Shown here one piece after another: positions 2,352 through 29,184 of a stretch of DNA of 64,000 nucleotides (position 1 is the first letter of the stretch; each line of letters opens with the position of its first letter). A program made the translations under genes and the position numbers. The DNA comes from Candidatus Spechtbacterales bacterium (lineage in GTDB: Bacteria > Patescibacteriota > Minisyncoccia > Spechtbacterales > 2-12-FULL-38-22): positions 29,256-93,255 of the forward strand of contig JBBDKX010000021.1 of NCBI GenBank assembly GCA_040879145.1. Reading direction: 5' to 3'. The notes beneath the pieces were generated by a model that worked only from the letters and a program-made list of their open reading frames with translations, was not told the origin of the DNA and made no database searches.

Positions 2352-2359
2352 AATCGCGG

Positions 2360-3400
2360 TTATCTTAGCGCAAGTCCTATTGCAACAGCATATTCGGGAG
2401 AATTAACACCCAAAGTGTGCTCCAATTCAGGAGGAATAATTATTTTTTTAAAAGGGTCGCCAACCTCTACATCAACACCTAAAGAACTCTTAAGATATTC
2501 AGTTAATCCGGGCATTCTCGCCTCTCCTCCGGTTAGTATTACGCGAACAACCTTTCTTCCGCCTTCTCTCACATAATCCTCAAACATCTGTTCTACCTCA
2601 AGTATTATCTTATCCATTGAGGGTTTTAACAGTTCGGATACTTCTCCGGCAGACTCCTGCACACCGTTTCTGCGCTTAAGCTCTTCTGCCCGAATGGGAT
2701 CTATTGCCATGCCACGCGCGAGAACCTGTACAAACTTGGAAGAGCCAGTATCTATATTGTGATGCATTACAACCAGCCCTCCATCTACAACACTCACGTC
2801 TGTTGCCCTCGCGCCTATATCTAAAATTGCAACAGGATCAGGGGAAGAGTCTACAAGTGCGCGCGCGCTGCTAAATGTTTCCAACTCTACATTAACAAGC
2901 TCTATTCCAACCATTTCAGCCATCCTGTTATACTTCTCTACTATCTCATTTGGCACCGCCACAGTCAGAACCTTTATTTTTTTGGCGTTTGAAAGATGAT
3001 CTACTTTAATCCAGTCAAATTGCACCTCCCCCATTGGGAGAGGAATATACTTTCTCGCTTCAAATCGGACTGCATTTTCAAGATCTTCATCGGCCATAGC
3101 GGGTAAATCTATTAGTGTAGAAAAGCTGGAAAACACAGGTAGTGATATTGAGGCCTCTTTTCCTCTAAACTTGGCGCTATCAAAAAGCCTATTAATAATA
3201 GTGGCTACCTGCGAATCTAAAATATTATAAGAACCGGCGTGAGCCGTTATATAGTTAGCTTTTGAAAAAAATTGGGCGTAATTAATCAAATAAACATCAT
3301 TGCCTTTTTGCAATAACTCAACCATCTTTAAAGAAGATGTTCCTATGTCAATGCCGAGTTTATATTTATAAGATTTTTTACTAAGCGGATTCCATATCAT
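2360..3400 (-). CDS. pilM: Type IV pilus assembly protein PilM (actin-like ATPase)
   Basis: 346 aa; LGIDIGTSSLKMVEL actin-fold phosphate-1 motif; operon with pilN/pilO/pilB. Confidence 0.8.
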   Translation of the reverse strand: MIWNPLSKKSYKYKLGIDIGTSSLKMVELLQKGNDVYLINYAQFFSKANYITAHAGSYNILDSQVATIINRLFDSAKFRGKEASISLPVFSSFSTLIDLPAMADEDLENAVRFEARKYIPLPMGEVQFDWIKVDHLSNAKKIKVLTVAVPNEIVEKYNRMAEMVGIELVNVELETFSSARALVDSSPDPVAILDIGARATDVSVVDGGLVVMHHNIDTGSSKFVQVLARGMAIDPIRAEELKRRNGVQESAGEVSELLKPSMDKIILEVEQMFEDYVREGGRKVVRVILTGGEARMPGLTEYLKSSLGVDVEVGDPFKKIIIPPELEHTLGVNSPEYAVAIGLALR

Positions 3401-3578
3401 ATTGGAGTATGTTTTTATTTACTTTTCCGTCTCTATCCTCTATTATAACAGTAATATAAAGTAAGAGCTATTGCTATTATCCACACTTAAATAAGCTAAA
3501 TGTTAGTATTTTGAACTCGTGCACACGATTGGATGCGCTTACAAGCAAGTACCTGCAAGATAAAGACGTATCATACAT

Positions 3579-6113
3579 ATGAAAAATATACCCACAAACT
3601 TAGAAAAACACCTGACAAAAAGAGCAAAAAATGCCTTGCGAAAATCTTTTAAGTTAGCCGCGCAATATCCCGATAAAACATCAAAAAACAAAGCAACACC
3701 AGCCCATCTTTTGTATGCCCTGGCGAAAGAGGAGGGTTCTATATCAAAAAACATACTTGAAGCTAATGACGTCAAAGCTACACGAATACTGACGGGGTTG
3801 AAAAAAATATCAGCTAAAAGCAGTTCAACAAACACAACGCCTGTAAGCGAGCTATCTCTTGATTATAAAAAGACCTTAAAAAAAGCGGCTAACTACGCTA
3901 TGAACCAAGGGCACTATTTTATAGGCACCGAACACCTGCTATATGGAACCCTTAACAAATCGCAGGGTGTTGAAGGATTTACACAACAAAAAATGAAAAA
4001 AGTAAAAGAGCATCTTGATGATATGATGGCAAGTTATCTTTCTCTTGAAACAGGGCTAAACCCAAACATGCAAAAACTTAGTTCTCTTGTAAGCGAGCAT
4101 GCAGACCATTCTCTTGAAGATGGCGAGTTGGAAGATGTTATTTTTTCAGATGTAAAGACAAAAACATCAAAAACCCCTGTGCTGGAATCTTTTTGTGAAA
4201 ATCTTTCCCAAAAAGCTGCAGATGGGAACTTAGACCCTTTAGTTGGAAGAGAAGCTGAACTAAACCGCCTGGTAAGAATACTTTCCAGAAAAACAAAGAA
4301 TAATCCCTTACTTGTAGGTGACGCGGGAGTTGGAAAAACAGCGCTTGTGCAGGGTCTCGCGCAAAAAATAAGCGAGGGTTATGTTCCGGCAAATCTTATA
4401 AACAAAACTGTGTATTCGTTAAACCTAAGCTCTCTTGTGGCCGGAACTCTTTATCGCGGGGAATTTGAAGAGAGGGTGCGCGACCTTCTTGAAGAAGCGG
4501 AAAAATCAAGTGTAATTCTTTTTATAGATGAGATACACATACTTCCCGGCGCGGGCTCAGCGCAGGGGTCGCTTGACGCGGCCAACATACTCAAACCGGC
4601 TTTGGTCAACGGAGCGTTTCAGTGTATAGGCGCCACAACATATGATGAGTATAAAAAAACCATAGAAAAAGATACAGCCCTGGACAGGCGTTTTCAAAAA
4701 ATATTTATTAAGGAGCAGACTCCTCAGGAGGCGATAAAAACCCTGGTGCACCTCAAGCCCTTCTATGAACAACATCACAACGTTGCTATATCCGACAAAA
4801 TTATTAACATGTGCGTTGATCTGTCTGTAAAATATATCCCCTCAAGATTCCTTCCCGACAAGGCGCTTGATATTCTTGATGAGGCTTCTTCGCTTACACG
4901 AACAGAAAAGATGATAAAAAAAGAGCATAGAGATATAAAGATACTGCAGGCAGAAATAATAGACGTAATTATGGACAAAGAAGAGGCTCTTAGAAAAGAG
5001 CATTATCAAAAGGCCATGCAACTAAAAAACAAACAGGAAGCGCTTGAGCAAAAAATATACAAGATGCACAAAGACAACCACGACCGCAATGCTTCGCCAA
5101 AAGTAACAGAAAAAGCTGTCTACGAAGTAATATCAGAGATAGCGGGGGTTCCTCTTCGTCAACTAACAAAACAGGACTCAGATGCGCTCTCCTCTATTGA
5201 AGCTCAAATTGGAAAACACCTTTTCGGACAGGATGACGCAATCAAAAAAGTTGCAAAAGCAATCCGCAGAAATCGAACAGGGGTTACCCGCGGAAATCGC
5301 CCCATAGCTTCCATGCTGTTCATGGGACCGAGCGGAGTTGGAAAAACAGAACTTGCAAAAATAATTGCCCACTCGTTTTCGGGCACAAACCCTTCCAGCG
5401 AGGGGGCTCCGGGAGCACTTATAAAACTGGATATGTCAGAATATTCAGAAGCGCATACAATATCACGCCTCATAGGCGCGCCTCCCGGATACGTAGGTTA
5501 TGAAGACGCGGGTCTTTTGACAGACAAGGTACGCAAGCATCCCTACTCAGTGGTGCTGTTTGATGAAATAGAAAAAGCACACCCAAAAATATTCAATGTA
5601 CTCTTACAGATACTGGAAGAGGGAACTCTAACTGATTCACAGGGAAAAAGCGCGAGTTTTAAAAATACATTTATAATACTCACATCCAACGTGGGGGCAA
5701 CTCTTTTCGGTAAAAATTCGGGGTTGGGATTTTCAGGAGCAGATTCCACAAATCGTGAAAAGAGCGCAATGGGAGCTCTTAAAGAGTTGATGAAACCGGA
5801 AATAATAAACCGGCTTGACGGCATAGTTGTATTCAATAATTTAGATTCCGCCACACTGGAGAAAATAGCAGAGGTACAAATTCACGAACTCAAAGAAAGA
5901 CTTAGCGACACAATTGAAATTACTTTCTCCAGTGCTGTCGCAAAATGGCTGGCACACAATACAGACGCGCAAGAAAAAGGAGCGCGTGGAATAAGAAAAG
6001 CAGTAGAAACACATTTAGAAGAGCCTATTTCAGACATCCTACTAAAAGAGAAGGTAAAAAACATAAAAATAGAAGTAAGACAAAATAAGCTTGTTGTTAA
6101 AACAAACAATTGA
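3579..6113 (+). CDS. clpC: ATP-dependent Clp protease ATP-binding subunit ClpC/ClpB-like AAA+ chaperone
   Basis: 844 aa; Clp_N repeats, two AAA modules (GDAGVGKTA... DEIH; FMGPSGVGKTELAK... DMSEYSEAHTISRLIGAPPGYVGY... FDEIEKAH). Confidence 0.85.
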   Translation: MKNIPTNLEKHLTKRAKNALRKSFKLAAQYPDKTSKNKATPAHLLYALAKEEGSISKNILEANDVKATRILTGLKKISAKSSSTNTTPVSELSLDYKKTLKKAANYAMNQGHYFIGTEHLLYGTLNKSQGVEGFTQQKMKKVKEHLDDMMASYLSLETGLNPNMQKLSSLVSEHADHSLEDGELEDVIFSDVKTKTSKTPVLESFCENLSQKAADGNLDPLVGREAELNRLVRILSRKTKNNPLLVGDAGVGKTALVQGLAQKISEGYVPANLINKTVYSLNLSSLVAGTLYRGEFEERVRDLLEEAEKSSVILFIDEIHILPGAGSAQGSLDAANILKPALVNGAFQCIGATTYDEYKKTIEKDTALDRRFQKIFIKEQTPQEAIKTLVHLKPFYEQHHNVAISDKIINMCVDLSVKYIPSRFLPDKALDILDEASSLTRTEKMIKKEHRDIKILQAEIIDVIMDKEEALRKEHYQKAMQLKNKQEALEQKIYKMHKDNHDRNASPKVTEKAVYEVISEIAGVPLRQLTKQDSDALSSIEAQIGKHLFGQDDAIKKVAKAIRRNRTGVTRGNRPIASMLFMGPSGVGKTELAKIIAHSFSGTNPSSEGAPGALIKLDMSEYSEAHTISRLIGAPPGYVGYEDAGLLTDKVRKHPYSVVLFDEIEKAHPKIFNVLLQILEEGTLTDSQGKSASFKNTFIILTSNVGATLFGKNSGLGFSGADSTNREKSAMGALKELMKPEIINRLDGIVVFNNLDSATLEKIAEVQIHELKERLSDTIEITFSSAVAKWLAHNTDAQEKGARGIRKAVETHLEEPISDILLKEKVKNIKIEVRQNKLVVKTNN

Positions 6114-10316: not shown

Positions 10317-10337
10317 GATTTTGTTTAAATCTTATTT

Positions 10338-10729
10338 TGGCGGTGTTTTTTGATTGATGTTCGAACTTTTTTTGAGGAAAACCCCCAATAAGGAAGCCAG
10401 CCCCGCCACGGCTCGGAAACCTCGCCACACCACAGAAAAATACTCTTTGCTCTTTTCATTTTGCGCGCGCCGGATTTCTTTTTCTTCTAATGAAAAGAGT
10501 ATTTTTCTGCGGTGTTCTGCCCTCCAAGTATTCGGGCAGGTGGCGGGGCTGTCCTCAATTTGATTTCGTAAAGAAAAAGCGGAATTCCCCCCAAACCCCC
10601 CTTCCGCTTTTTCTTTTCTCAAACGGAACGGGAACGGAAGCAGTCGGGCAAAAATTCCTTCCCCCCAAACCCCTTCCTTTTTGCCCGCCTGCTTGGGCTT
10701 CGCCCACAAAACTTTTCGGCGGGACGGCG
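10338..10729. repeat. 392-bp inverted repeat, copy 1 (IR-A1); GC-rich, highly self-complementary; partner at 20572-20964
   Basis: Reverse complement matches 20572..20964 with only a few mismatches; ends in TTGGCGGTG. Confidence 0.9.
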
Positions 10730-11467
10730 TTATTTTATCAAATTCCAATTATCGAGGAAATATCCCATTTCGTGATCTTTATTTCCGAGATACACTTTTT
10801 CGTCTCTAAATTTGATATTCACTCGATAGCGTTTTCCATGCCCGACTTCCAAAATGGCTTTTTCGTGGACTTTCTTTTCAACTTCATGAAATGGCAAAAT
10901 CAAAAAATTGTTTTTCTTCTCGCCGTGCAAAACAAAAATATAGTAAATATTTCCGTTGCTGTGGCGTTCAAAAGACACTTTGCGAATATCAAAAACATAA
11001 GTATCAAAACTATTCAAATTTGAGGTTTTAACCTGTATGCCAAACAATTGATTTTCTTTGACCGCCACAATATCCATTCCCACATCTACGCTCATTATAC
11101 TGGCGTTGAAACCACGAAAAAGCAACTCGCTACAAACTAAATACTCGCCAGCTTTTCCGGTAAATCCACCAGCAATAACAATTTTTTCTTCTTCCTCTTT
11201 TTCCGCTTCAATAATCTTTGGCGTTTCTTTGATTTCTTTTTTGTTTGGATTGAGCGCAAAAGTTCCGGGTGCGGTTTTGATAAAATCCGAGCCTTCAACT
11301 TTGGTTTTAATATCTACCGTGATTTGCGCGTTCATTGATGCTTCTGGTGTTGCGCCTTCTGTTTCCAAAATACCAGACTCCAAAGCCAACCGAGTGATTT
11401 CGGTATAATGCAAGGGCGTTTTTGCCTTTTTCAATATTTCAATTGCCGATTGTTTGAATGTGTTCAT
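10730..11467 (-). CDS. HARE-HTH (Mrr_N-like winged helix) + restriction-endonuclease-fold protein; candidate Mrr-like nuclease
   Basis: N-term SAIEILKKAKTPLHYTEITRLALESG...GSDFIKTAPGTFAL (HARE-HTH); middle GEYLVCSELLFRG...DVGMDIVAVKE...IQVKT resembles a PD-(D/E)xK core; translationally coupled to upstream gene. Confidence 0.5.
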   Translation of the reverse strand: MNTFKQSAIEILKKAKTPLHYTEITRLALESGILETEGATPEASMNAQITVDIKTKVEGSDFIKTAPGTFALNPNKKEIKETPKIIEAEKEEEEKIVIAGGFTGKAGEYLVCSELLFRGFNASIMSVDVGMDIVAVKENQLFGIQVKTSNLNSFDTYVFDIRKVSFERHSNGNIYYIFVLHGEKKNNFLILPFHEVEKKVHEKAILEVGHGKRYRVNIKFRDEKVYLGNKDHEMGYFLDNWNLIK

Positions 11468-11468
11468 A

Positions 11469-12755
11469 TTATTCTAAGGTTTTATCGTTATCAGAAAGCT
11501 CTGCAAATTTAGCTTCCATTGTGGGATTTCCGCGCGTTAGTCTTTTGATTGTTAAATCTTCAGCTTTATTATTGGCAAGGCGAAGATTATTTTCAGAAGA
11601 CAAGAGAGCGTCTTTAGTTTTTTGAAGATGATCAATGGTTCTGTCTATTTCTTCAATAGCGGTTTTAAATTTGCGACTAGCAAGATCATAATTTTTGGCA
11701 AAACCTTCTTTAAACTTATTTATATTATCCTCAAAGTTTGTTATATCAACATTTTGGCTTTTAACTAAAGCGAGTTCAGCTTTATATTTCAGTGAGTTCA
11801 TCGCCGCGTTGCGAAGCAAGGTAATAATTGGAATGAAAAATTGTGGACGAACAACATACATTTTGGGGTATTTATGAGCAACATCAACAATTCCGGTGTT
11901 GTATAGCTCATTTTCAGCTTCCAAAAGCGAAACAAGAACGGCATACTCGCATTTCTTTTCAGTACGATCTTTGTCTAGTTCTCGCAAAAAATCGTCGTTT
12001 CGTTTTTTTGTAGCAGTTTCATCTCCCTCATTCTTCATCTCAAACATGATTGAGATAATTTCATTGCCGGTTTCGTCGGTCTCTCGATAAACATAATCAC
12101 CCTTACTTCCTGTTTTTGAATCGTTATCTTTTTCAAAATAAGCGTGTTGAAAAGCAGTCGCGCGAAGTTTGTTAAATTCGGTTTCGCAATGCTGTTCAAG
12201 TGTTTCCCCAACCATTTTGGTTGAGAGCTTGAGCTTCATATCTTTGCGAAGGGCGATCTCATCATCTTTCATCTTTATAATATCGTCTTTGGTTTTAAGA
12301 TCGGCTAAATACTTTTCAAGCAATGATTTTTCCAGCAGTTGTTTTTCGGTTTCTTTGCTTTTTAGGTCATTAGCCAGATCATCACGCTCTTTTTCAATCT
12401 TTTTGACTGCTTCGGTAACACTGAGTTTTTTCTCTACCTCAGATTTATCAATCTTTGATTTCATTTCGGCGAGTTCAGCTTCCTTCTTCGCCAATTGTTC
12501 AGCAAGACTGCGATCCTTCTCGGCTCTTAACTCCACCAGTTCTTTATCTTTCTTCGCGAGTTCGTCTTGTAATGTATTTTTGAGATTGGATTCGGCTAAT
12601 TTAACAGCACTTTCTTTTTCCTTTTCCGCAATATTTAATCGCTCACGCAATTCTTCTTCAAATTTATGATCACGAACCTGTTTGAGGATATCAGCAAAAC
12701 CAGCCTCATCGACTTTGAAAACTTTTTTACAATTTGGACATATAATATCTTGCAT
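11469..12755 (-). CDS. DUF2130-like protein: N-terminal zinc ribbon, long coiled coil, C-terminal globular (RmuC/nuclease-like) domain
   Basis: [20 protein letters not shown], then about 200 aa of Glu/Lys coiled coil, C-terminal [22 protein letters not shown]; 18 nt after hsdR. Confidence 0.5.
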
Positions 12756-12773
12756 ATTGATTATTTTATTTTG

Positions 12774-15700
12774 TTATAACTTACCACCTGAAATATCAAA
12801 GAATCGCTCAAAGAAACTTGTTAGCTTATACAAAACACTTTCTCGTTTCTGTGTTCTTTCACCAGTTGGAGAAAATCGAGACACGGGCGGTAATACTTTT
12901 GATATCGCAGTACCAGTTGTTGCAACGCTTCCGTCTCGAAAAGCATTTTTTATAAATTTATAGGTTGCCTCTTTATCAAGATTTTCATTTTCAATAATTT
13001 TTTCCAATTCCTCAATCTTCTTTTCTTCTACAAATTTTTGCCAATCTTCATCAACAATTGAATGCACATCAAGAGAGGTAATAAATTGATTAATGAGATC
13101 CTTTTTATTTCGGAGTTCAACGCTAGAATCAATCGCTTTATTAATATCAACCAAAAGTTCTTTATTCTTTGTATGATCTTCGTGATATCTTTTTATAAGC
13201 CCTAAAATATAATCAATATTAATCTCGACTTGCTTAATAAGCTCCATTTCAAAGACTAGATCGTCATTAACATTTTCTTGTTCTCCATCAACACCTTTGC
13301 GAAATTCATTATACAAATCAATATACATGCTGTGATAATCCTGCACATCACGCTCGGTCAGAATTTCATTACCTGCGAATTCATCAAAAGTTGTCAGGAT
13401 ATTTCGCACACGCAAAACCGCTCCATATAATTTGATAAAATCTTTTTGGTTCTGTTCTCCAACAATACTTTCACCGACTGGAAATTTCTCTAAAAGTTCG
13501 TCTATTAAACTTTTGTAACCCCGGACTTGTTTTTCGCCGTCTTTATAGCCATTGTAATAATCGGCATAGGCTTTCAGCAGGACAATGCCACATGCTTCTT
13601 TGTCTCCAAAAAGTGCAATAGATTCGTTAGTTGCTTTTTCTAGGTTGCGAAAACAAACAATATTTCCAAAGGTTTTTACACTGTTTAAAATGCGGTTTGT
13701 TCTGGAAAATGCTTGTAACAATCCATGTAAACGAAGATTTTTATCAACCCATAAAGTATTAAGAGTTGTTGCGTCAAATCCGGTCAAAAACATGTTTACC
13801 ACAATCAAAATATCTATTTCTCTTTTTTTAACTCTTTCGCTTACATCTTTATAATAATTTTGAAACTTATCTGACGAAGTATCATAGGAAGTTCCAAACA
13901 TCTTGTTATAATCAACGATAGCTTTTTCCAGAAAATCTCGAGAGCTGACATCAAGTCCGCTCGTATCTTCAGAATTTTCATCAATCATTCCGTCCGCGTC
14001 TTCATCATTGACCCCAAAACTAAAAATCGTAGCTATTTTAAGTCGTTTGTCGCTTGGCTCGTCGGTTAGTTGCTTTTTAAATTCAAGATAATACTTTTTT
14101 GCCACATCAATAGACGAAACGGCAAAAATAGAATTAAATCCCGCCAGTCTGCGATCCTGAATTTTATAAAAACTATTTCGTTTTGTCTTTTGGTCAAAAT
14201 GTTCTCGAATATATCGGACAATATTTTCCAGTCGCTCTGGGGCGCAAAGTATAGCCTCGCGATCAATATCTTTCACTTTTGCATCTTCAATATTTTCCGC
14301 TTCACGAACTGTAGAAACATAATCAACCTTAAACGGCAAAACATTTTTGTCAGCAATTGCATTGACGATTGTGTAAGTGTGCAATTTTTCTCCAAAAGCT
14401 TGTTCGGTAGTTTTGAAATCAATGCGACCGCCAGATGAAGAATTTACCGCAAAAATTGGCGTGCCGGTAAAGCCAAAAAGATGATAATTGTTAAATGCTT
14501 TGACGATACTCGCATGCATATCGCCAAATTGTGAACGATGGCACTCGTCAAAAATCAAAACAATATGTCCGTCAAAAATAGTGTGTCCAGAGTTTCGATT
14601 GATAAATCTGTCTAATTTTTGAATCGTTGTAATAATTATCCGAGAATTAGAATTTTCTAATTGTTTTTTCAAAATAGCGGTACTGGTATTGCTATTCGCC
14701 GCCCCTTTTTCAAATTTGTCATACTCTCGCATTGTTTGATAGTCCAAATCCTTACGATCAACTACAAATAAAACTTTATCTACATAAGGTAATTTGCTGA
14801 CGAGTTGAGCGGTTTTAAAACTGGTCAAAGTCTTTCCCGAACCTGTCGTATGCCAAATATAACCGCCTGCTTCTATTGTCCCTAGTTTTTTATAATTTGT
14901 ACTAACCTCAACTCTGCTCAATATTCGTTCGGTAGCAACTATTTGATATGGTCGCATCGCTAAAAGCTGTTTATCGGTAGTAAACACACAATATTTAGTC
15001 AAAATATTCAAAATCGTATGCTTGGCAAAAAATGTCTTGGCAAAATCCATCAGCTCGGTAATTGGTTTATTTGTCGCGTCTGCCCACCAGCTCGTAAATT
15101 CAAAACTATTGCTCGATCTTTTTCCTTTTTTGATTTTGCCTTCGCTTGCTTCTTTTATGTGCTGTGATCTGGTTGTATTGCTGTAATATTTGGTATGCGT
15201 TCCATTGGAAATAATAAAAAGTTGTACATATTCAAAAAGTCCGCTGGATGCCCAAAAACTTTCTCGTTGGTAACGATTGATTTGATTAAATGCTTCTTGG
15301 ATGGCGACACCACGGCGTTTTAGCTCGATATGAACAAGAGGAAGTCCGTTTACCAGAACTGTCACATCATAACGATTCACTCGCTGTCCGTCCTCGGTCG
15401 CATATTGATTGATCACCTGCAAGCTGTTGTTGTGAATATTTTTCTTGTCTATTAGATCAATATTCTTAAAAGTGCCGTCATCTCGGTCTAATATTTTTGT
15501 GCTATCTTCTTGAATAGTGGCGGTTTTTTCTTCAATGCTTTGATTTGGATTGGCAATAATACTGACAAAAAACTTTCCCCATTCGGTATCGGTAAAAGTA
15601 AAATTATTTAGTTTTTCCAACTGTTGACGCAGATTAAGAACAAGCTCATTTTCAGAAGTGATTTTCAAATATTCGTATGCTTGCGTTTCTAATTGTTTTA

Positions 15701-15827
15701 TAAAAACACTCTCAAGATCGGCTTCACTTTGGTAGTGAGCCACTCTTTTGGTATCTGGAACATACTCGGCAACAACCGTGCTTTGAGTGCTTTCGGCGAC
15801 TAAGTTGTATTTATTCTTATTTGGCAT
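12774..15827 (-). CDS. hsdR: Type I restriction enzyme R subunit (HsdR)
   Basis: 1017 aa; HsdR_N, helicase motif I HTTGSGKTLT, motif II FDECHRSQ, C-terminal HsdR_C; overlaps hsdS by 11 nt. Confidence 0.9.
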   Translation of the reverse strand: MPNKNKYNLVAESTQSTVVAEYVPDTKRVAHYQSEADLESVFIKQLETQAYEYLKITSENELVLNLRQQLEKLNNFTFTDTEWGKFFVSIIANPNQSIEEKTATIQEDSTKILDRDDGTFKNIDLIDKKNIHNNSLQVINQYATEDGQRVNRYDVTVLVNGLPLVHIELKRRGVAIQEAFNQINRYQRESFWASSGLFEYVQLFIISNGTHTKYYSNTTRSQHIKEASEGKIKKGKRSSNSFEFTSWWADATNKPITELMDFAKTFFAKHTILNILTKYCVFTTDKQLLAMRPYQIVATERILSRVEVSTNYKKLGTIEAGGYIWHTTGSGKTLTSFKTAQLVSKLPYVDKVLFVVDRKDLDYQTMREYDKFEKGAANSNTSTAILKKQLENSNSRIIITTIQKLDRFINRNSGHTIFDGHIVLIFDECHRSQFGDMHASIVKAFNNYHLFGFTGTPIFAVNSSSGGRIDFKTTEQAFGEKLHTYTIVNAIADKNVLPFKVDYVSTVREAENIEDAKVKDIDREAILCAPERLENIVRYIREHFDQKTKRNSFYKIQDRRLAGFNSIFAVSSIDVAKKYYLEFKKQLTDEPSDKRLKIATIFSFGVNDEDADGMIDENSEDTSGLDVSSRDFLEKAIVDYNKMFGTSYDTSSDKFQNYYKDVSERVKKREIDILIVVNMFLTGFDATTLNTLWVDKNLRLHGLLQAFSRTNRILNSVKTFGNIVCFRNLEKATNESIALFGDKEACGIVLLKAYADYYNGYKDGEKQVRGYKSLIDELLEKFPVGESIVGEQNQKDFIKLYGAVLRVRNILTTFDEFAGNEILTERDVQDYHSMYIDLYNEFRKGVDGEQENVNDDLVFEMELIKQVEINIDYILGLIKRYHEDHTKNKELLVDINKAIDSSVELRNKKDLINQFITSLDVHSIVDEDWQKFVEEKKIEELEKIIENENLDKEATYKFIKNAFRDGSVATTGTAISKVLPPVSRFSPTGERTQKRESVLYKLTSFFERFFDISGGKL

Positions 15828-16998
15828 ATTCTTTTTCTTTGAAAGTTAGAAGTTTCCCTCGGTAGTATTCATATTGTGATCGACGAGCTTTGAGTTCAGC
15901 CGGTAAGCCAATTGAAATATCATTTACAAGGGCATCAAATTTGTCGAGGATTGAAACAATTCGTTTTTGTTCGGGTAAGAGTGGAATAGGAATTTTAAAC
16001 TCTTTTACCTTGGCATCTGAAATTGATGGATATGCAGAACCTTCTTGCTTCTGTTCAACATAATCATTAAAACGACTAGAAGCAATATTGAAATATATCC
16101 ATTTTGGCAGAACTTTTTTTTCATCTGCTCTTAAAACACAATATCCAGTACTTGCAATCTGCCCGTCATAAACATCATCAATTAGAGTATATCGTCGTAG
16201 GGTTGGACGAGTGGTTGCAAAAATCACATCATCTTTTTGTATAAGTTTTTGCGCTCTACTAGGTGCGTTATTTGAATTAATTTCAACAGTTTCATTTATA
16301 CTATGATCATCACGGCTAACAGATGTTAAATCAATATATTTATAAATTTTGTCTATTTCTTTCCATTTTATATTTTGAGTTGAGAATGTTACTTCCCCCA
16401 AAGTTTTATATTCTACATCTTTTATATTCAACAAATCATCTCGATAATGCTCATACTGCTTCTTCCTCGCCTCCAGCTCTGCCTCCAGCTCTGCCTCCAG
16501 CTCTGTAAAACTATCAAGAATTTTGACGATTTCTTGTTGGACTGGGAGGGGTGGGATGGGGATTTTGATTTTTTCCATTACATTACTCATTATCTTGGGA
16601 TTTCCCATTCCAGCACTAACATATTTTTTAGATAATGTCGCCAAGATATATGAAAGGAACTTCATGTTCACATTCCTATCTTTAGCTTTCAAAAGTCCGC
16701 AAACATTCGTAATACTAAATTTTCCGTTACGATAGAAAATTGAACCAGCATATGCTCCGTCAGTTGTCCAAGTTATATACTCACCGTCATAGTCATAAGT
16801 ATTGATGCGACCAAAAACACCGTTGTCCGCTGTTTGAGATGAATACACTGGATACTCGCCGGCATTTTCATTCAAATAATCTTTTGACATTACTCTCCCG
16901 CGATTGATTTGGCAGATTTCACCAATACTCTTTAACTCAATCCCATTCGGGCAAAGTTCAGCAATTAGTTTTTCGATTTTAGATTGATTAGTTATCAT
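15817..16998 (-). CDS. hsdS: Type I restriction-modification specificity subunit (HsdS), two target-recognition domains
   Basis: 393 aa; conserved central region LPPLPVQQEIVKILDSFTELEAELEAELEARKKQYEHYRDDLL and C-terminal LPEQKRIVSILDKFDALV...LKARRSQYEYYRGKLL. Confidence 0.85.
   Translation of the reverse strand: MITNQSKIEKLIAELCPNGIELKSIGEICQINRGRVMSKDYLNENAGEYPVYSSQTADNGVFGRINTYDYDGEYITWTTDGAYAGSIFYRNGKFSITNVCGLLKAKDRNVNMKFLSYILATLSKKYVSAGMGNPKIMSNVMEKIKIPIPPLPVQQEIVKILDSFTELEAELEAELEARKKQYEHYRDDLLNIKDVEYKTLGEVTFSTQNIKWKEIDKIYKYIDLTSVSRDDHSINETVEINSNNAPSRAQKLIQKDDVIFATTRPTLRRYTLIDDVYDGQIASTGYCVLRADEKKVLPKWIYFNIASSRFNDYVEQKQEGSAYPSISDAKVKEFKIPIPLLPEQKRIVSILDKFDALVNDISIGLPAELKARRSQYEYYRGKLLTFKEKEYAK
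16468..16503. repeat. 12-bp tandem repeat x3 (CGCCTCCAGCTC / TGCCTCCAGCTC x2) encoding (ELEA)n in hsdS central conserved region
   Basis: Directly visible in sequence; in-frame 4-aa repeat ELEAELEAELEA. Confidence 0.9.
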
Positions 16999-18593
16999 AA
17001 TTTTTTAAGTGAATCGACATCGCTTTCTATATATCCTCTTAAGATATCAATTGACTCTTTCAGTTTTTCATCAAAATCACCCTTCTTGTTTGCCGGATAA
17101 TGGATACAATTTCTAATAAATGTTGGCAATGTTACTTTCGCATTTTTTACTTTAGGTTTACTTGTATCAGTACAGTCTTTTTCAGCTTTTTTTATTTGTT
17201 TGAGATATTGTTCATCAAAAGCATTTATACCTATACTTTCAATATGCTTTGATTCATCTTTTTCTTTAGAGTTCTTGTCATTAACAAACCAATCTCTTAA
17301 TTTATCGTAAAGTTCGTTGTGGTATTGTTCATCTAAAATGTCGAAAACTTCATATGACACTTCTGCATAGCTTGTTTGTTTTTTACCTAATTCATCAACC
17401 TCTCGTACATTTGTATATTCTTCATTATTTTGATTTTTTATCTTTTCAACTCGATAATATCTACCCAAATCTTTTTTATCAATCATGTAGTTCGAGTGTG
17501 TGGCGAATAAAACAATATTACTTTTGCTATTGTTTGTAATCTCTACAAGCTGAGCAAGTAAATGCTCTTGTGCTTTTGGATGTAAATGTGTTTCAGGCTC
17601 ATCAAGTAAAATAATTGTATTTTGCAGTTCCTCATTTTTATTTTCTGCAACGACAGTTAATAAAAAAGAAATGAATTGCTTAAAACCATCACTCCGCATG
17701 TCTGATGTCTGAGCTTTTCCTTCTGTATCAATATCTTTAACATGAAAATTAATATGCCCATCCATTATCTTAAATGTAATTTCTATAGGATGTTTGGGCC
17801 AAGCTGTATTAATATGCTCTGTTACATTTTTGCCAAGTCTCTTTTCAAGATATTCACAAGTTGGAGTATCAGCTAAAGCATCCTCTAGTTCCTGTTTTAT
17901 TTTATCTTGAGAAATTGAAGATAGTAAAAAACAGTTTCTCAGAGGTATTGAGGTGTTTGTGTCATTAATAAACTGTTCAATATTTATCGGTTTTGAAATT
18001 AGATAACGATCTTCTGCAGTCCAGAAAATTGTTTTATGTACATTTTCCTCTATAAAGTTATCAAATTCATCTTTGTTATTGATTTCAATTTCTTGATCTC
18101 CTTCAAAAACTGAAGTTGAATATTCAGGATCAGCACTAGCCTTAGAAAAACTAATAACATAATCTGCAATCAAAGAGCTCAAAATTTTATTCTTTGGTTT
18201 TTTAACTTCCTTAATTTTACTATCTTCAACATCTTGCGTCTGCCCACCTTCTATAGCAGAAACTTCTTTTTCTAAATTTGGGACTGGATTATCAACAGAA
18301 TCTTCTTTATTTAAAATCTCGTACAATTCCTTATCCTCTTTCGAAGTAATACTATATCGATAAGTAATTTTTATTTCTTCTTTTAATCTAAAGTCTTTTA
18401 ATAATGGAAGTTTTGTACCAGAGTCGTCAACTAATCCATCTTTTAAGCCAATCGCTTTTAATATAGATGATTTACCAGCTTCATTTATTCCTATTAATCC
18501 GTAAGTGAAACTATTGTCATCTCTTTTGATTATGTTAAAAGGAGTTTCTTTTATACTTCTATAATTTTCAATTGTAATTTTTGTGATTTTCAT
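16995..18593 (-). CDS. ABC/SMC-like AAA ATPase (OLD/AAA_15-like head) with about 130-aa C-terminal domain of unknown function, embedded between hsdM and hsdS
   Basis: Start reassigned to MKITKITIENYRSIK (ATG 18593, 4 nt after hsdM stop); Walker A GINEAGKSSILKAIGL; Walker B ILLDEPETHLHP; ATHSNYMID. Confidence 0.7.
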   Translation of the reverse strand: MKITKITIENYRSIKETPFNIIKRDDNSFTYGLIGINEAGKSSILKAIGLKDGLVDDSGTKLPLLKDFRLKEEIKITYRYSITSKEDKELYEILNKEDSVDNPVPNLEKEVSAIEGGQTQDVEDSKIKEVKKPKNKILSSLIADYVISFSKASADPEYSTSVFEGDQEIEINNKDEFDNFIEENVHKTIFWTAEDRYLISKPINIEQFINDTNTSIPLRNCFLLSSISQDKIKQELEDALADTPTCEYLEKRLGKNVTEHINTAWPKHPIEITFKIMDGHINFHVKDIDTEGKAQTSDMRSDGFKQFISFLLTVVAENKNEELQNTIILLDEPETHLHPKAQEHLLAQLVEITNNSKSNIVLFATHSNYMIDKKDLGRYYRVEKIKNQNNEEYTNVREVDELGKKQTSYAEVSYEVFDILDEQYHNELYDKLRDWFVNDKNSKEKDESKHIESIGINAFDEQYLKQIKKAEKDCTDTSKPKVKNAKVTLPTFIRNCIHYPANKKGDFDEKLKESIDILRGYIESDVDSLKKL

Positions 18594-18597
18594 AAAT

Positions 18598-20178
18598 TTA
18601 TCGTTTAGTATTTTCAATATCCGCCACAATCTCATCAATCGCAGTACGCAGTTCATTTTGTCTTGACACGATCTTGGCAATTTTTTCGTTGAGTTCCGTT
18701 ATATTCACCACCTCGCGTGTATCTTCCGCCATCACATAACTTGAAACCGCAATATTGTAATCATTCTCACCAATAGTTTTATTATCAACTAACTTTGCAA
18801 AATACTCTGCATCTTGTCGTAGCGTAAAAGCATCAAGAATTTTTTTGCGATTTCCTTCGCTCAATTTATTTTTATTTCCGCCCCGTACAAATTCAGCCGA
18901 GGCATCAATAAATAAAGTTTTGTTGTCTTTTTTGCTTTTTTTCAAAACAATAATGCAAGTAGCAATAGTCACCCCAAAAAATAGATCGGGGGGAAGCTGG
19001 ATAACCGTATCAATATAGTTATTATCAACCAAATACTTGCGGATTTTTTGTTCAGCTCCGCCACGATAGAGAACTCCCGGAAATTCAACAATCGCCGCCG
19101 TTCCGCTGGTTGAAAGCCACGCAAGCATGTGCATGGTAAAAGCGAGATCAGCTTTGCTCTTTGGCGCCAACACCCCAGCCGGCGAAAAACGCGGATCATT
19201 AATCATCAAAGGATTGGCATCGCCGTCCCACTTTATCGAATATGGCGGATTAGAAACAATGGCGTCAAACGGTTCATCATCCCAATGTTTTGGATCAGTG
19301 AGTGTGTCGCCGTGAGCAATATCAAAATGATTGTAATTAATATCATGCAAAAACATGTTGATACGGCAAAGATTGTAGGTAGTGAGATTTATTTCTTGAC
19401 CAAAAAATCCCTGCCTGACATTTTCCTTGCCAAGCACTTTTGCAAATTTCAAAAGAAGCGAACCAGATCCACAGGCTGGATCGTAGACTTTATTAACTTC
19501 TGTTTTGCCTGCTGTTGCGATTTCCGCCAAAAGCTCGCTCACTTCTTGAGGTGTATAATATTCTCCGCCAGATTTACCAGCATTAGATGCGAACATCGCC
19601 ATTAAATATTCGTAAGCATCACCAAAAGCGTCGATTGTATTATCTCCATAATTACCAAGACGAAGATCGCCGATGGCTTCTAAAAGTTTTACGAGTTTTT
19701 GATTTCTTTTCTCTACAGTTCCACCGAGCTTATTTGAATTCACATCTAAATCGTCAAATAATCCTTTCAAGTCATCTTCACTATCAAATCCTTTCGCAGA
19801 ATTTTCGATATTATCAAAAACATTTGAAAGTGTTTCGTTAAGTTTTGCATCGTTGCGAGCATTTTTACGAACATTTACAAAAAGAGCACTTGGTAAAATA
19901 TAAAAACCTTTTTCTTTTATAGTGTCGGCTCTTCCAAATTCAGCTTCTTTATCAGAAAGTGAAGCATAATCAAAATCTTTGTTGCCGGTGCGTCGCTCAT
20001 CGGCATTGATGTAATTTGTAAGATTTTCGCTGATGAAACGATAAAAAAGTATTCCAAGAACATATTGCTTGAAATCCCACCCATCAACGGCACCTCGCAA
20101 ATCATTGGCAATCTGCCAAATAGCACGATGAAGTTCGGCTCGTTCTTGTTCTTTGGTTGTATTTAGATTATTTGCCAT
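18598..20178 (-). CDS. hsdM: Type I restriction-modification DNA methyltransferase (HsdM), N6-adenine
   Basis: 526 aa; HsdM_N; SAM motif YDPACGSGSLL; catalytic SNPPYSIKW. Confidence 0.9.
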   Translation of the reverse strand: MANNLNTTKEQERAELHRAIWQIANDLRGAVDGWDFKQYVLGILFYRFISENLTNYINADERRTGNKDFDYASLSDKEAEFGRADTIKEKGFYILPSALFVNVRKNARNDAKLNETLSNVFDNIENSAKGFDSEDDLKGLFDDLDVNSNKLGGTVEKRNQKLVKLLEAIGDLRLGNYGDNTIDAFGDAYEYLMAMFASNAGKSGGEYYTPQEVSELLAEIATAGKTEVNKVYDPACGSGSLLLKFAKVLGKENVRQGFFGQEINLTTYNLCRINMFLHDINYNHFDIAHGDTLTDPKHWDDEPFDAIVSNPPYSIKWDGDANPLMINDPRFSPAGVLAPKSKADLAFTMHMLAWLSTSGTAAIVEFPGVLYRGGAEQKIRKYLVDNNYIDTVIQLPPDLFFGVTIATCIIVLKKSKKDNKTLFIDASAEFVRGGNKNKLSEGNRKKILDAFTLRQDAEYFAKLVDNKTIGENDYNIAVSSYVMAEDTREVVNITELNEKIAKIVSRQNELRTAIDEIVADIENTKR

Positions 20179-20182
20179 AATT

Positions 20183-20392
20183 TTATTTCATTAAATCATC
20201 AAGCGAAACGCCGAGAGCGTCCGCAATTTTTTTGACTGTATCAATAGTAGGGTTGGGAGTAGAGCCAGCTTCAATTTTGGCAATCGTATGAAAAGCCAAA
20301 TCTGCTTTTTTTGAAAGCACATCTTGAGAAATACCGAGCTTGTTTCGGTATTTCTTTATATTCTCGCCAATTGTGGATTTTTCGTTTGACAT
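20183..20392 (-). CDS. XRE-family HTH transcriptional regulator (candidate C-protein/controller of the R-M operon)
   Basis: 69 aa; IKKYRNKLGISQDVLSKKADLAFHTIAKIEAG HTH_XRE; first gene of operon, 4 nt before hsdM. Confidence 0.8.
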   Translation of the reverse strand: MSNEKSTIGENIKKYRNKLGISQDVLSKKADLAFHTIAKIEAGSTPNPTIDTVKKIADALGVSLDDLMK

Positions 20393-20571: not shown

Positions 20572-20964
20572 CGCCGTCCCGCCGAAAAGTTTTGGGGGCG
20601 AAGCCCAAGCAGGCGGGCAAAAAGGAAGGGGGTTGGGGGGAAGGAATTTTTGCCCGACTGCTTCCGTTCCCGTTCCGTTTGAGAAAAGAAAAAGCGGAAG
20701 GGGGGTTTGGGGGGAATTCCGCTTTTTCTTTACGAAATCAAATTGAGGACAGCCCCGCCACCTGCCCGAATACTTGGAGGGCAGAACACCGCAGAAAAAT
20801 ACTCTTTTCATTAGAAGAAAAAGAAATCCGGCGCGCGCAAAATGAAAAGAGCAAAGAGTATTTTTCTGTGGTGTGGCGAGGTTTCCGAGCCGTGGCGGGG
20901 CTGGCTTCCTTATTGGGGGTTTTCCTCAAAAAAAGTTCGAACATCAATCAAAAAACACCGCCAA
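20572..20964. repeat. 392-bp inverted repeat, copy 2 (IR-A2)
   Basis: Near-identical reverse complement of 10338..10729; ends ...CACCGCCAA, overlapping the start of IR-B1. Confidence 0.9.
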
Positions 20965-21091
20965 TTTTCACTTTTTGTGAAATCGTAAGGAATTGCCTCG
21001 GCGCAAAGCGCCTCGGCATGGTATTTTTCCGCAATTTTGAAGGCATTTTTGAAATCCAAAAACAAAGAGCGGTCGGCAATGCGGAAGTTCG
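20958..21091. repeat. About 134-bp inverted repeat IR-B1 (inverted copy of the recombinase 3' coding end plus tRNA-Ser-proximal sequence)
   Basis: Reverse complement identical to 22575..22709. Confidence 0.85.
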
Positions 21092-21205: not shown

Positions 21206-22819
21206 ATGGACAACATAAATTTACAAACCAAAAAGTTTTTCCTCTATGCCCGTAAATCCACGGACGAACCCGAAAGGCAGGTTTTGAGTATTGAAGCGCA
21301 AATTTTCGAGCTGAAAGAATACGCCCGAAAAGAAAATTTGCAGATCGTCCGTGAATTTGTGGAAAGCAAAACCGCCAAAGAACCCGGGCGAGAAATTTTT
21401 AATGAAATGGTGGCGGGCATAGAGAAAAACGAAGCCGAGGGAATTTTAGCGTGGCACCCTGACCGTCTTGCTCGCAATTCCATAGACGGCGGACGAATAA
21501 TCTATCTTGTAGATACTGGAAAGATCACCACGCTAAAATTTCCAACTTTTTGGTTTGATTCAACTCCACAGGGAAAATTTATGTTGTCCATTGCTTTTGG
21601 GCAATCAAAATACTATGTGGATAATCTTTCGGAAAATATAAAGAGGGGTATTCGCCAGAAATTGCGAAATGGAATTTGGCCCGCTTGGGCGCCACTTGGC
21701 TATATAAACGATAAAAACGCTCGCTGTATCGCTGTGGACAAAGAAAAGGCGAAGTATATCAAGCGGGCTTTTGAAATGTATTCAACTGGCGAATATCCCC
21801 TCGCTCAAATCCGAAAGATTATCAATTCCTTGGGCTTGGTTGGCAAGAAAGGCAAAATGCTTTCCGTCTCAAATTATCAATATATGCTCAAGAACAAAAT
21901 ATATTTTGGCATGATTGAATATAACGGCGAATTGTATGACGGAAAGCATGAACCGATTATCACAAAGAAACTTTTTGATTCTGTTCAAGAAGTGATGATG
22001 AAAAAATCCAAACCGAAAACGCCAAAATTGAAACCGTATGTGTATAGAGGATTTTTCCGTTGCGGAGAGTGTGGCTGTTTCATAACTACCGAAACGCAGA
22101 AAGGTCATAACTACCTGCGATGCACTAAACGGAAAAATCCTTGCACGCAAAAATATGTTCGCGAGGAAATCATCACTTCTCAAATAAAAGAGGAAATCAA
22201 AAAAGTTTCTTTGTCTTCCGCTTGGGCAAACGCTTCAATCAATTATTTTGAAAATGAAAAATTGAAAACCGCCCAAGCGGAAAGCTCTTTTGCCCAAAAG
22301 TCGCGAGATGAGCTTGTGGAAACAGAAACAAAACTTGATCGTTTGCTTGATTTACATTTGGAAGGCAGTTTGTCGCAAACGGAATATGCTACTAAAAAGC
22401 ACAAGCTCATTCTCGCAAAAAAGGATTTGGAAGAAAAAATCTCGTCTTTTGGGCGAAAGAGCAATAATCGGTTCGAACTTGCCATAAACTTCATAAAAGA
22501 AGCCAACCAAGCCGAAAAATACGCTCAACAAGAAAATCCCGAAAGGATTCGGGATTTTCTCAAAAAGATTGGTTCGAACTTCCGCATTGCCGACCGCTCT
22601 TTGTTTTTGGATTTCAAAAATGCCTTCAAAATTGCGGAAAAATACCATGCCGAGGCGCTTTGCGCCGAGGCAATTCCTTACGATTTCACAAAAAGTGAAA
22701 ATTGGCGGAGGGGGTGGGACTCGAACCCACATAGGCTTGCGCCTGCCAGTTTTCAAGACTGGTTCCTTAGCCAATTCGGAGCACCCCTCCTTATTTATTT
22801 TTTCTTCTTTTTACCCTGA
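21206..22819 (+). CDS. Large serine recombinase (resolvase N-domain + recombinase domain + zinc ribbon + coiled coil)
   Basis: YARKSTDEPERQ catalytic Ser motif; PLGYIND recombinase domain; CGECGCFITTETQKGHNYLRC zinc ribbon; ORF as predicted runs through IR-B2 and antisense across tRNA-Ser, so true stop is uncertain. Confidence 0.8.
   Translation: MDNINLQTKKFFLYARKSTDEPERQVLSIEAQIFELKEYARKENLQIVREFVESKTAKEPGREIFNEMVAGIEKNEAEGILAWHPDRLARNSIDGGRIIYLVDTGKITTLKFPTFWFDSTPQGKFMLSIAFGQSKYYVDNLSENIKRGIRQKLRNGIWPAWAPLGYINDKNARCIAVDKEKAKYIKRAFEMYSTGEYPLAQIRKIINSLGLVGKKGKMLSVSNYQYMLKNKIYFGMIEYNGELYDGKHEPIITKKLFDSVQEVMMKKSKPKTPKLKPYVYRGFFRCGECGCFITTETQKGHNYLRCTKRKNPCTQKYVREEIITSQIKEEIKKVSLSSAWANASINYFENEKLKTAQAESSFAQKSRDELVETETKLDRLLDLHLEGSLSQTEYATKKHKLILAKKDLEEKISSFGRKSNNRFELAINFIKEANQAEKYAQQENPERIRDFLKKIGSNFRIADRSLFLDFKNAFKIAEKYHAEALCAEAIPYDFTKSENWRRGWDSNPHRLAPASFQDWFLSQFGAPLLIYFFFFLP
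22575..22709. repeat. IR-B2 (partner of 20958-21091), ending in the tRNA-Ser 3' terminus
   Basis: Sequence identity with reverse complement of IR-B1. Confidence 0.85.
22703..22790 (-). tRNA. tRNA-Ser (anticodon UGA), long variable arm, CCA encoded
   Basis: Minus-strand GGAGGGGTGCTCCGAATTGGCTAAGGAACCAGTCTTGAAAACTGGCAGGCGCAAGCCTATGTGGGTTCGAGTCCCACCCCCTCCGCCA; cloverleaf and anticodon loop CTTGAAA. Confidence 0.85.
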
Positions 22820-23643: not shown

Positions 23644-24660
23644 TTAATTGTTGTATTTTTTCAAATGTTTAGGATTATTACTGCTTATTGTATCAAAATA
23701 AATTTTCATGTCATGCTTACTATCCAAACGCACATCCCGCCCTGCCAGTCTTGGATTTAAGCCAGTATTGCGCATTATTTTGAAAACTGAATTTCTAAGG
23801 GGTTCTGAATAAGATGTAAATGACAGTTTTTTATAAGAGTACTCCTTACTCTTAACTCTATATCTATGAATAAAAATAGAGCCATCTGTGTCAACCAAGC
23901 CCCGCAGGCACGCAATTTCGAAATCTTTATCACCCATTATCCATTTCGGTATATCTACCTGCTTTTTTATTTTATTACCTCTTACTAAACCCAGATTATT
24001 TTCACAAAACCTTACTAACTCTACTCGAGATACCGCATAAATACACGCATTAGCATCTTTTCGTTCGTGAATTCCCACATATACTCCAAACAGATTCTCC
24101 ATTAAATTTTTTACATATACGCCATATTTTTTATCATCTTTACTATGAAGTGTAACTGTAACCTGTTGATTAGATATACCCCCATCCCCTAACATTATTC
24201 CAACAAACTCTGCAAGGCTTTTTGAGTATTTAGGTTTTTTAATTTTTATTGGAGCACTTGTAAGCCCGCTTGACTTAAAACGCCCTTCTTTCTCCCACCA
24301 TTCATACCATTTCTGTTTTCTGTATTTCTCATTTTTTGGCATTTCCCCATACTTACTAATAACAGCCTCCCACCCCAACTTTGCGCCTTCATGCGCATAC
24401 CAATATTTATCTAACATCGTTATATCTTTAGGCCAAGATTGTTTAGATTTCTCACATAAAATTTTCAACGATTTTTCATTTATTAAAAATTTTTCACGTC
24501 GCCAATCTCTAACAGTACGCTCAGACCTACCACACCACTTTGCCATTTGTTCAACTGAAAACTCTTTTTCTATATTTTCTATAAAAGCTTTTTGTTTTCC
24601 TTTTGGAAATCTTATTCTGCTATCTTTAATCTTTTCAGCCATATCTCCATAATACACCAT
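23644..24660 (-). CDS. Free-standing LAGLIDADG homing endonuclease (two motifs) with N-terminal HTH-like region
   Basis: LAEFVGIMLGDGGIS and LRGLVDTDGSIF LAGLIDADG motifs; 338 aa; 21 nt upstream of tRNA-Ser(GCT). Confidence 0.8.
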   Translation of the reverse strand: MVYYGDMAEKIKDSRIRFPKGKQKAFIENIEKEFSVEQMAKWCGRSERTVRDWRREKFLINEKSLKILCEKSKQSWPKDITMLDKYWYAHEGAKLGWEAVISKYGEMPKNEKYRKQKWYEWWEKEGRFKSSGLTSAPIKIKKPKYSKSLAEFVGIMLGDGGISNQQVTVTLHSKDDKKYGVYVKNLMENLFGVYVGIHERKDANACIYAVSRVELVRFCENNLGLVRGNKIKKQVDIPKWIMGDKDFEIACLRGLVDTDGSIFIHRYRVKSKEYSYKKLSFTSYSEPLRNSVFKIMRNTGLNPRLAGRDVRLDSKHDMKIYFDTISSNNPKHLKKYNN

Positions 24661-28560: not shown

Positions 28561-29184
28561 TCAAACGAAACTAGAGAGATAAAGCTCTCCCTTTATCTTG
28601 CCCTCTTCTCTCATTTTTATCAGTTTTCCTCTTAAGTCAGGAGTTAGGGATGAGCAGCCTGTAAAATAAGCATCTCCGTTGAATATAATATTGTCGGGTA
28701 TTTCTTTGAGAGATGTGCAGCCTCCAAAATAAGCCCTTCTTTCAAAGGTTGTGTTGTCGGGTATTTCTTTGAGAGATGTGCAGTGCCCAAAATTAGCATC
28801 TCCTTCAAAGGTTGTGTTGTCGGGTATTTCTTTTAATGTTTCCGCATAGGGACTAAAATCTATATTCTTGGACACGATGATCTTCTCTTTTTCTGTATCT
28901 ATTTTAAAATTGGCTTCAATAAATTCTCCCGCCTCCTCTTCGCTGTTACCCAGGTTTTCCCGCGCCCATTGTATGAGTTTTTCTTTTTCTCTTTCTGGGT
29001 TGAACTCCTGTTCTTGAGCGCCACTATCTGCATTATCATATTTTTCTAATTCATCTAGATCTTGAGGATCATCATCCTGAGGCATCGCACCTCCTAGTTT
29101 TTCTATACTCATAATATTAAAATTTAATTCTACTCTTCCATAATACCCCCCCCGACCTAAAAATGCAAGCGTTTTTATACACAA
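28561..29184 (-). CDS. Leucine-rich-repeat (BspA/TpLRR-like) repeat protein; true start uncertain (29184 or 29112)
   Basis: 21-aa repeats IPDNTTFEGDANFGHCTSLKE x3; 63-bp nucleotide tandem repeats. Confidence 0.5.
   Translation of the reverse strand: MCIKTLAFLGRGGYYGRVELNFNIMSIEKLGGAMPQDDDPQDLDELEKYDNADSGAQEQEFNPEREKEKLIQWARENLGNSEEEAGEFIEANFKIDTEKEKIIVSKNIDFSPYAETLKEIPDNTTFEGDANFGHCTSLKEIPDNTTFERRAYFGGCTSLKEIPDNIIFNGDAYFTGCSSLTPDLRGKLIKMREEGKIKGELYLSSFV
28681..28828. repeat. 63-bp tandem repeats (about 2.3 copies plus a degenerate copy upstream) inside LRR gene
   Basis: TTGTCGGGTATTTCTTTGAGAGATGTGCAG... repeated. Confidence 0.85.

Follow-up and report, generated by a model that had tools for sequence, protein, structure and literature searches.

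Length-setting repeats of type IC specificity subunits

Tandem tetra-amino-acid repeats are characteristic of the central region of hsdS in type IC restriction-modification (R-M) systems, where they help to define the length of the spacer within the recognition site (PMC10030836). EcoR124I, with two TAEL units, recognizes GAAN6RTCG, whereas EcoR124II, with three units, recognizes GAAN7RTCG (PMC3874165). The central and distal helices of HsdS pair in an antiparallel coiled coil, by which the distance between its two target-recognition domains (TRDs) is set, and in hybrids with an altered number of units the spacer changes as predicted; this dependence of the spacer on unit number is established for EcoR124I/II and EcoDXXI hybrids only (PMC3874165). 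The element considered here is a 12-bp tandem repeat in an hsdS gene of Candidatus Spechtbacterales, an order of the phylum Minisyncoccota in the candidate phyla radiation (CPR)/Patescibacteria group. It lies in a stretch of 64,000 nucleotides, hereafter the window (GenBank assembly GCA_040879145.1, contig JBBDKX010000021.1, positions 29,256 to 93,255). A first-pass annotation of this DNA had likened the repeat to the switch between EcoR124I and EcoR124II, citing the relation of two versus three units to N6 versus N7, a relation that the review PMC3874165 bears out. The repeat is very probably a tetra-amino-acid length module of the central helix of a type IC-family HsdS, whose units would be gained or lost by slippage or recombination, each such change shifting the spacer by one base in either direction.

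The repeat tract and the central helix of HsdS

The intact hsdS gene (15817..16998, minus strand) encodes 393 amino acids (aa), in which Pfam Methylase_S is found in two stretches (E 1.1e-53). Three 12-bp units occupy positions 16468..16503 and read on the minus strand GAG CTG GAG GCA, the same again, and GAG CTG GAG GCG; on the plus strand, 16468-16503 reads CGCCTCCAGCTC TGCCTCCAGCTC TGCCTCCAGCTC. Their product, ELEAELEAELEA or (ELEA)3, corresponds to HsdS residues 166-177, with codon boundaries falling exactly at 16503 and 16468. The threefold 12-bp repeat that had been annotated at this place is confirmed both by the letters and by Tandem Repeats Finder, which reports 16469-16505 with a period of 12 and 3.1 copies, at 100% matches and without indels. 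The run of perfect period 12 extends over 25 bases, as against a mean longest run of 8.1 and a maximum of at most 13 in 200 shuffles of the window, and 1.9e-10 runs of at least 25 bases are expected by chance; a chance origin of the repeat is therefore excluded.

All three units share GAG-CTG-GAG, made of codons that are in the minority elsewhere in the gene: outside the repeat, GAA and GAG stand at 19:5, and among 28 Leu codons a single one is CTG. By chance, three units would have their codons in common with a probability of about 0.01, a value that falls to about 4e-9 for the rare codons seen here. Because the minority codons GAG and CTG are common to all units, these are duplicates at the DNA level and more than a periodic peptide.

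At the protein level, TRD1 (approximately residues 18-150; 16549..16947, minus strand) falls in the best Methylase_S stretch (18-176) and is 84-91% identical in many relatives, and TRD2 (approximately residues 198-340; 15979..16407, minus strand) falls in the second Methylase_S stretch and matches TRD1 of the T. tengcongensis HsdS 5ybb/3okg (residues 199-355). Between them lies the central conserved region, residues 151-190 (16429..16548, minus strand), QQEIVKILDSF-T(ELEA)3-RKKQYEHYRDDLL, as delimited by an AlphaFold2 model and by an ungapped alignment to the EcoR124I HsdS chain 7bst_A. The model was built on 38 sequences and has a mean predicted local distance difference test score (pLDDT) of 88.7, with values of 83-91 over residues 151-190. 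It places the repeat inside one uninterrupted predicted alpha-helix, residues 151-190, between the two TRDs. Foldseek against the PDB gives a template-modelling score of 0.72 to 7bst_A. The earlier placement of (ELEA)3 in the central conserved region thus holds, the repeat aligning without gaps to the TAEL region of EcoR124I. The distal, C-terminal conserved region (residues 341-383; 15850..15978, minus strand), delimited by the model and by linker counts, carries a non-repetitive 17-aa linker, DALVNDISIGLPAELKA, and is modelled as helices 341-359 and 364-383 with a break at GLP; it is the presumed partner of the central helix in an antiparallel coiled coil.

The gap-free HMMER alignment sets ILDSF-T-ELEA-ELEA-ELEA-RKKQY of the window protein against ILDKF-T-ALTA-ELTA-ELNM-RKKQY of 7bst_A, so that the central linker between the ILDxF and RKKQY anchors is 13 aa in both. 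The 7bst protein, from a PDB entry titled EcoR124I, has two perfect TAEL units. Since the partial units flanking them are degenerate (ALTA-ELTA-ELNM), three perfect ELEA units match, by this alignment, the length of the two-TAEL EcoR124I (N6) state and not that of the three-TAEL EcoR124II. The reading of three copies as the EcoR124II state is rejected on this ground: the comparable quantity is linker length, and the counting of copies misleads.

If the window repeat is the same length module as that of EcoR124, as homology and the comparison with relatives suggest, each 4-aa unit would lengthen the central helix by about one turn. Whole 12-bp units, being the same in DNA sequence, could be added or removed in frame by replication slippage or by unequal recombination, and each such change would be expected to leave an active enzyme whose spacer is one base longer or shorter. 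By the same reasoning, spacer length would follow unit number in the window enzyme. Units may also change at a meaningful rate in this organism, in which the consensus is fixed at three units. A DNA hairpin was considered as an aid to slippage and rejected: the repeat DNA shows no hairpin or cruciform potential, folding no better than shuffles (z = 0.92; 169 of 200 shuffles equal or surpass it).

Unit number among relatives

A protein search returned 7986 matches at E <= 1e-20, the best full-length relative being 73-74% identical. The sample comprised the 120 best of these 7986 proteins (98 of those of at most 500 aa with a parsable linker) and 108 loci, amounting to about 170 homologues with linkers. 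Their central linker measures 9, 13 or 17 aa, corresponding to two, three or four units; the respective counts are 7, 64 and 27 for the proteins and 1, 39 and 28 for the full-length loci. The distal linker is 17 aa in 95 of 95 proteins and in 68 of 70 loci; in L044 and L051 it is 31 aa, with a Pro/Ala-rich insertion (DALVNDTTPPPSAAPLQGRGIAESIPAEISL).

The units are also homogenized within genes. Units encoding the same peptide are identical in DNA in 73% of pairs within a gene (mean 0.29 differences, n = 175) and in 15% of pairs between genes (mean 1.72 differences, n = 3818), with DNA versions that vary by gene, among them GAGCTAGAAGCA, GAGCTGGAGGCG and GAGCTTACAGCC. As judged from these comparisons, such homogenized units are the signature of continuing unit turnover, that is, of concerted evolution.

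Three independent pairs of near-identical metagenome alleles differ by essentially one 12-bp unit, without any TRD exchange. The hsdS genes of L085 and L086 show no mismatch in 1206 nt and one 12-bp indel, with a single mismatch over the 6.2-kb loci; L094 and L098 differ by one mismatch and one 12-bp indel, and L054 and L055 by one mismatch in 4.2 kb and one 12-bp gap. Unit number also varies among relatives that carry the same TRD pair as the window gene, which are 65-83% identical to it overall and have two, three or four units. Four units are found in L001, from a Parcubacteria metagenome-assembled genome (MAG; 83% identical overall, 90% in TRD1 and 77% in TRD2), and in L029 (85% and 67% identical in TRD1 and TRD2); three units are found in P0002, L002 and L030, and two in P0005 (65% identical overall). 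Because linkers are quantized, units are homogenized within genes, allele pairs differ by one unit and relatives with the same TRDs have two to four units, unit gain and loss are taken from these sequences to be real and recurrent in this HsdS family.

Exact look-ups of hypothetical HsdS proteins with one, two, four or five units gave no match in a protein collection. The real three-unit protein is likewise missing from that collection, even though one Logan contig of the companion index has a 393-aa gene call that encodes it; the negative look-ups are therefore without weight for this gene. Half-length hsdS open reading frames (ORFs) of about 190-250 aa, comprising TRD1 and the central repeat and in some cases two units only, occur in L012, L047, L057, L059-L063 and L065; these could have arisen by truncation or frameshift, or could be true half-HsdS genes whose products act as homodimers.

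The codons of the units deserve separate mention. In the window, the central conserved stretch (16444-16503) uses G-ending codons (AGG AAG AAG CAG ... GAG), and the distal conserved region uses A/T-ending ones. GAG-CTN starts nearly every unit version in L001-L108 (GAG-TTG is found in 2 of 48 distinct arrays), even in AT-rich genes that prefer GAA and TTA/CTT. This bias could reflect horizontal spread of a central cassette or a constraint at the DNA level.

Alternative explanations

Several points weigh against a repeat that changes its unit number in this organism. Three units are present both in the MAG and in L109 (9525 bp), which comes from an independent Logan assembly of run SRR27977663 and is 100% identical to window positions 10676-20200, and no heterogeneity appears at the consensus level. 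No relative more than 90% identical was found in the genome scan (28 loci, best 82-83%) or in the metagenome scan, the 80 loci of which gave no full-length match to the window hsdS above about 75%. The 13-aa linker is the commonest class in the family (64 of 98 proteins, 39 of 68 loci), so three units may just be a stable optimum for the window gene. That its TRDs are 77-90% identical to those of the four-unit L001 does not ensure identical half-sites. Finally, three 12-bp units make a short array, in which changes are probably rare and not of the kind seen in high-frequency phase variation.

The most probable alternative is a static structural repeat, in which ELEA builds a coiled-coil helix of fixed working length, without variation within the species on ecological timescales, and the identity of the units stems from an old duplication or from an imported central region. 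The agreement of the two assemblies, the modal linker class and the shortness of the array speak for it, the more so as rates of only 0.5-2 x 10^-6 are given for three-unit tetranucleotide tracts in a survey cited in PMC7383803. It is nevertheless faced with rare synonymous codons common to the units, with units homogenized within genes but different between genes, with three independent allele pairs that differ by one unit only, and with a unit number that varies among relatives having the same TRD pair. The rare codons, the concerted evolution and the allele pairs are difficult to square with a repeat that is purely static, although such a repeat may hold for this organism on short timescales; overall, this alternative is considered rather unlikely.

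A slightly less probable alternative holds that the central DNA, including the repeat, serves mainly as homology for the reassortment of TRDs between hsdS alleles, a change in unit number being a by-product. The TRD1 type of the window (84-91% identical) is joined to unrelated TRD2s in many loci, e.g., L004, L005, L036 and L039, and it occurs in the TRD2 position (80-87% identical) of hsdS in L013, L014, L016 and L070-L078. The G-ending codons of the central region (GAG, CTG, AGG, AAG, CAG) are atypical for an AT-rich gene and consistent with import, and recombination at the central conserved region has been proposed for H. pylori hsdS (PMC3077401). Against this, the allele pairs show a change of unit number without TRD exchange, and the window holds a single hsdS-like sequence, with no occurrence of the 12-bp unit elsewhere in it. 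Silent hsdS cassettes or an inverting shufflon within the window are rejected for the same reason. Reassortment would in any case leave the spacer-length role standing: a use of the central conserved DNA as a crossover site is supported by these TRD combinations and is compatible with a role of the repeat in the spacer.

An assembly or consensus artefact, with a true copy number that is different or mixed in the sample, is very improbable: the source is a MAG, whose consensus hides minority alleles, but the tract of 37 bp is below sequencing-read length and the independent assembly is 100% identical over 9525 bp, which makes an artefact unlikely.

The length module with whole-unit gain and loss is therefore the preferred reading. 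The slipped-strand specificity switch proposed at first pass is supported as to whole-unit variation by the homologues, with two, three and four units and the three allele pairs; in this population, with three units in both assemblies, the switch is a potential and not an observation. A wider proposal, by which gain and loss of 12-bp units would be a pervasive and ongoing form of type I specificity variation across many phyla including the CPR, with minority two- or four-unit alleles coexisting in this Spechtbacterales population and shifting the spacer by one base, is speculative and rather doubtful. If it were true, the GAG-CTN unit start, retained in AT-rich hosts too, would indicate that a slippage-prone cassette is selected for at the DNA level or spreads horizontally. 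Such variation has had no systematic survey so far, the one large survey of repeats in hsd genes having left out units divisible by three (PMC7383803).

The host operon and its type IC identity

The genes of the host operon are co-directional on the minus strand and tightly packed, with overlapping or abutting ORFs, in the order XRE regulator, hsdM, AAA_15 ATPase, hsdS, hsdR, DUF2130 gene and HARE-HTH/PDDEXK gene. The order hsdM-hsdS-hsdR is typical of type IC, and the window order fits it, with the ATPase gene inserted between hsdM and hsdS. HsdM (526 aa; 18598..20178) has EcoR124 HsdM as its best solved relative (7bst_D; E 3.1e-187, 626 bits), residues 7-523 aligning with 3-515, i.e., full-length homology. 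HsdR (1017 aa; 12774..15827) carries an EcoR124_C domain (4.7e-68) together with HSDR_N, SWI2_SNF2 and T1R_D3-like domains, and its best solved relative is the EcoR124I HsdR (phmmer match 2w00/4bec, E 1e-255, 854 bits). The best solved relative of HsdS is 7bst_A (E 1.9e-38); besides its two TRDs, the protein has the type IC central and C-terminal conserved regions (ILDKF...GLPxE...RxKQYEYYR) and, in (ELEA)3, the tandem tetra-amino-acid repeats that are a type IC hallmark. As the best solved relatives of HsdR, HsdM and HsdS are all EcoR124 subunits, the system is classed by homology as a complete, EcoR124-like member of the type IC family.

Directly upstream of hsdM, an XRE-family HTH protein of 69 aa (20183..20392, minus strand; HTH_3, E 9e-16) is likely the controller protein of the R-M operon. 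At its other end, the operon includes the DUF2130 gene (11469-12755, minus strand) and the HARE-HTH/PDDEXK gene (10730-11467, minus strand). The AAA_15/AAA_21 ATPase between hsdM and hsdS (16995..18593, minus strand; 532 aa from the ATG at 18593) is a member of the operon with no part in the repeat mechanism. Its best matches in a defence library are the Old, AbiLi and AriA (PARIS) ATPases, and no Toprim or DUF4435 nuclease partner was detected for it; its last ~130 aa, at the C-terminus, match no assigned domain. Relatives have other genes in this slot between hsdM and hsdS, namely one for a HATPase_c_3 protein in L001, one for an SMC-like ATPase together with a small ORF in L005, and Shedu SduA in L013; after hsdS, both L001 and L013 have an AAA_13 (PrrC/RloC-like) gene (slot and flank genes at 2019-3974 and 5193-6290 in L001, 1561-3998 in L005, and 2043-3173 and 4355-5455 in L013). 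Within type IC operons, this slot acts as a hotspot for varying defence genes.

The island and its surroundings

The 9.8-kb R-M island lies in its entirety, from the HARE-HTH/PDDEXK gene up to hsdM and the XRE gene, between the two arms of a 393-nt inverted repeat (10337-10729 and 20572-20964), which are 99.5% identical and differ at two positions, 10669 and 10706. These arms are G+C-rich, with an internal 22-nt hairpin and implausible ORF translations; an Rfam scan of the window found four tRNAs only and no family for the arms. The Logan contig breaks off within the left arm, after 54 nt of it, as would be expected if the reads contain a true repeat. Over 332 bp the arms are identical, so that short-read assembly may not have fixed the orientation of the island. 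The bracketed island, whose G+C content is 0.33-0.37 as against about 0.40 outside, could be an invertible or mobile segment.

A second, perfect inverted repeat of 134 nt (20958-21091 and 22575-22708) brackets the gene of a large serine recombinase (ORF 21206-22819; Resolvase, Recombinase and Zn_ribbon_recom). Its left arm abuts the 393-nt repeat, and its right arm takes in the 3' end of the recombinase ORF and reaches that of tRNA-Ser(tga) (22703-22790). This arrangement suggests that an integrative element sits at tRNA-Ser and either includes the R-M island or lies next to it; as there is a single hsdS in the window, the recombinase has no hsdS partner to invert. Farther along the window, a LAGLIDADG-like ORF (23644-24660, minus strand) adjoins a second tRNA-Ser. 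Other tandem repeats are a 63-bp repeat of 2.3 copies with 90% matches (28691-28833) and three short 7-bp repeats of four to five copies (40280-40309, 40562-40594 and 46916-46948).

Comparison with known systems

The window repeat shares with that of EcoR124I/II its position in the central helix and its period of 12 bp, or 4 aa, and the window HsdS combines, as EcoR124I does, a 13-aa central linker with a non-repeated distal linker of 17 aa. The unit is TAEL in EcoR124 and ELEA (in another register, LEAE) here, and EcoR124I has two perfect units with degenerate flanking ones, whereas the window gene has three perfect DNA units. The TRDs of EcoR124 are others than those of the window HsdS, so that the spacer of the latter cannot be read across as N6 or N7. 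Moreover, the window gene belongs to a CPR bacterium, in which its location is chromosomal or on an island, and there is an extra ATPase gene between hsdM and hsdS. In EcoDXXI and EcoPrrI, type IC systems with three TAEL units, the same module is found in the state represented among the relatives by the 17-aa linkers of L001, L005 and L016, the window gene being one unit shorter. In EcoPrrI, the anticodon nuclease gene prrC adjoins hsdS, whereas the window is without an AAA_13/PrrC-like gene.

Other type IC units, LEAT, SEAL and TSEL, are attributed to Adamczyk-Poplawska et al. (2003) as cited in PMC10030836. The list as cited there is without ELEA or LEAE, yet ELEA/LEAE is the commonest unit among the relatives of the window gene; it is a sequence variant only of the known type IC units. 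The presence of the window TRD1 type in the TRD2 position of other hsdS genes likewise recalls the "domain movement" described for H. pylori. In Mycoplasma pneumoniae, the copy number of a 12-bp tandem repeat in hsdS varies from strain to strain and also among passages of a single strain (PMC4537597, PMC8836594). Its repeats (AELS/TELS) are, like the window repeat, in frame and located in the first helical dimerization domain. The arrays reach far higher copy numbers, up to about 33 (PMC4537597, Table 7), and many of the hsdS genes are orphans, whereas the window has one array only, of three units, within a complete hsdMSR operon.

By these comparisons, the feature is a known textbook hallmark of type IC HsdS; the host lineage is new, the mechanism is not, and only the breadth of unit turnover across metagenomes is mildly new. 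It documents a complete EcoR124-like type I system with a classical length-setting repeat in an uncultured ultra-small bacterium, and it may be of use in predicting methylation motifs from hsdS sequences, provided that linker length is counted, as in the alignment with EcoR124I, instead of copies.

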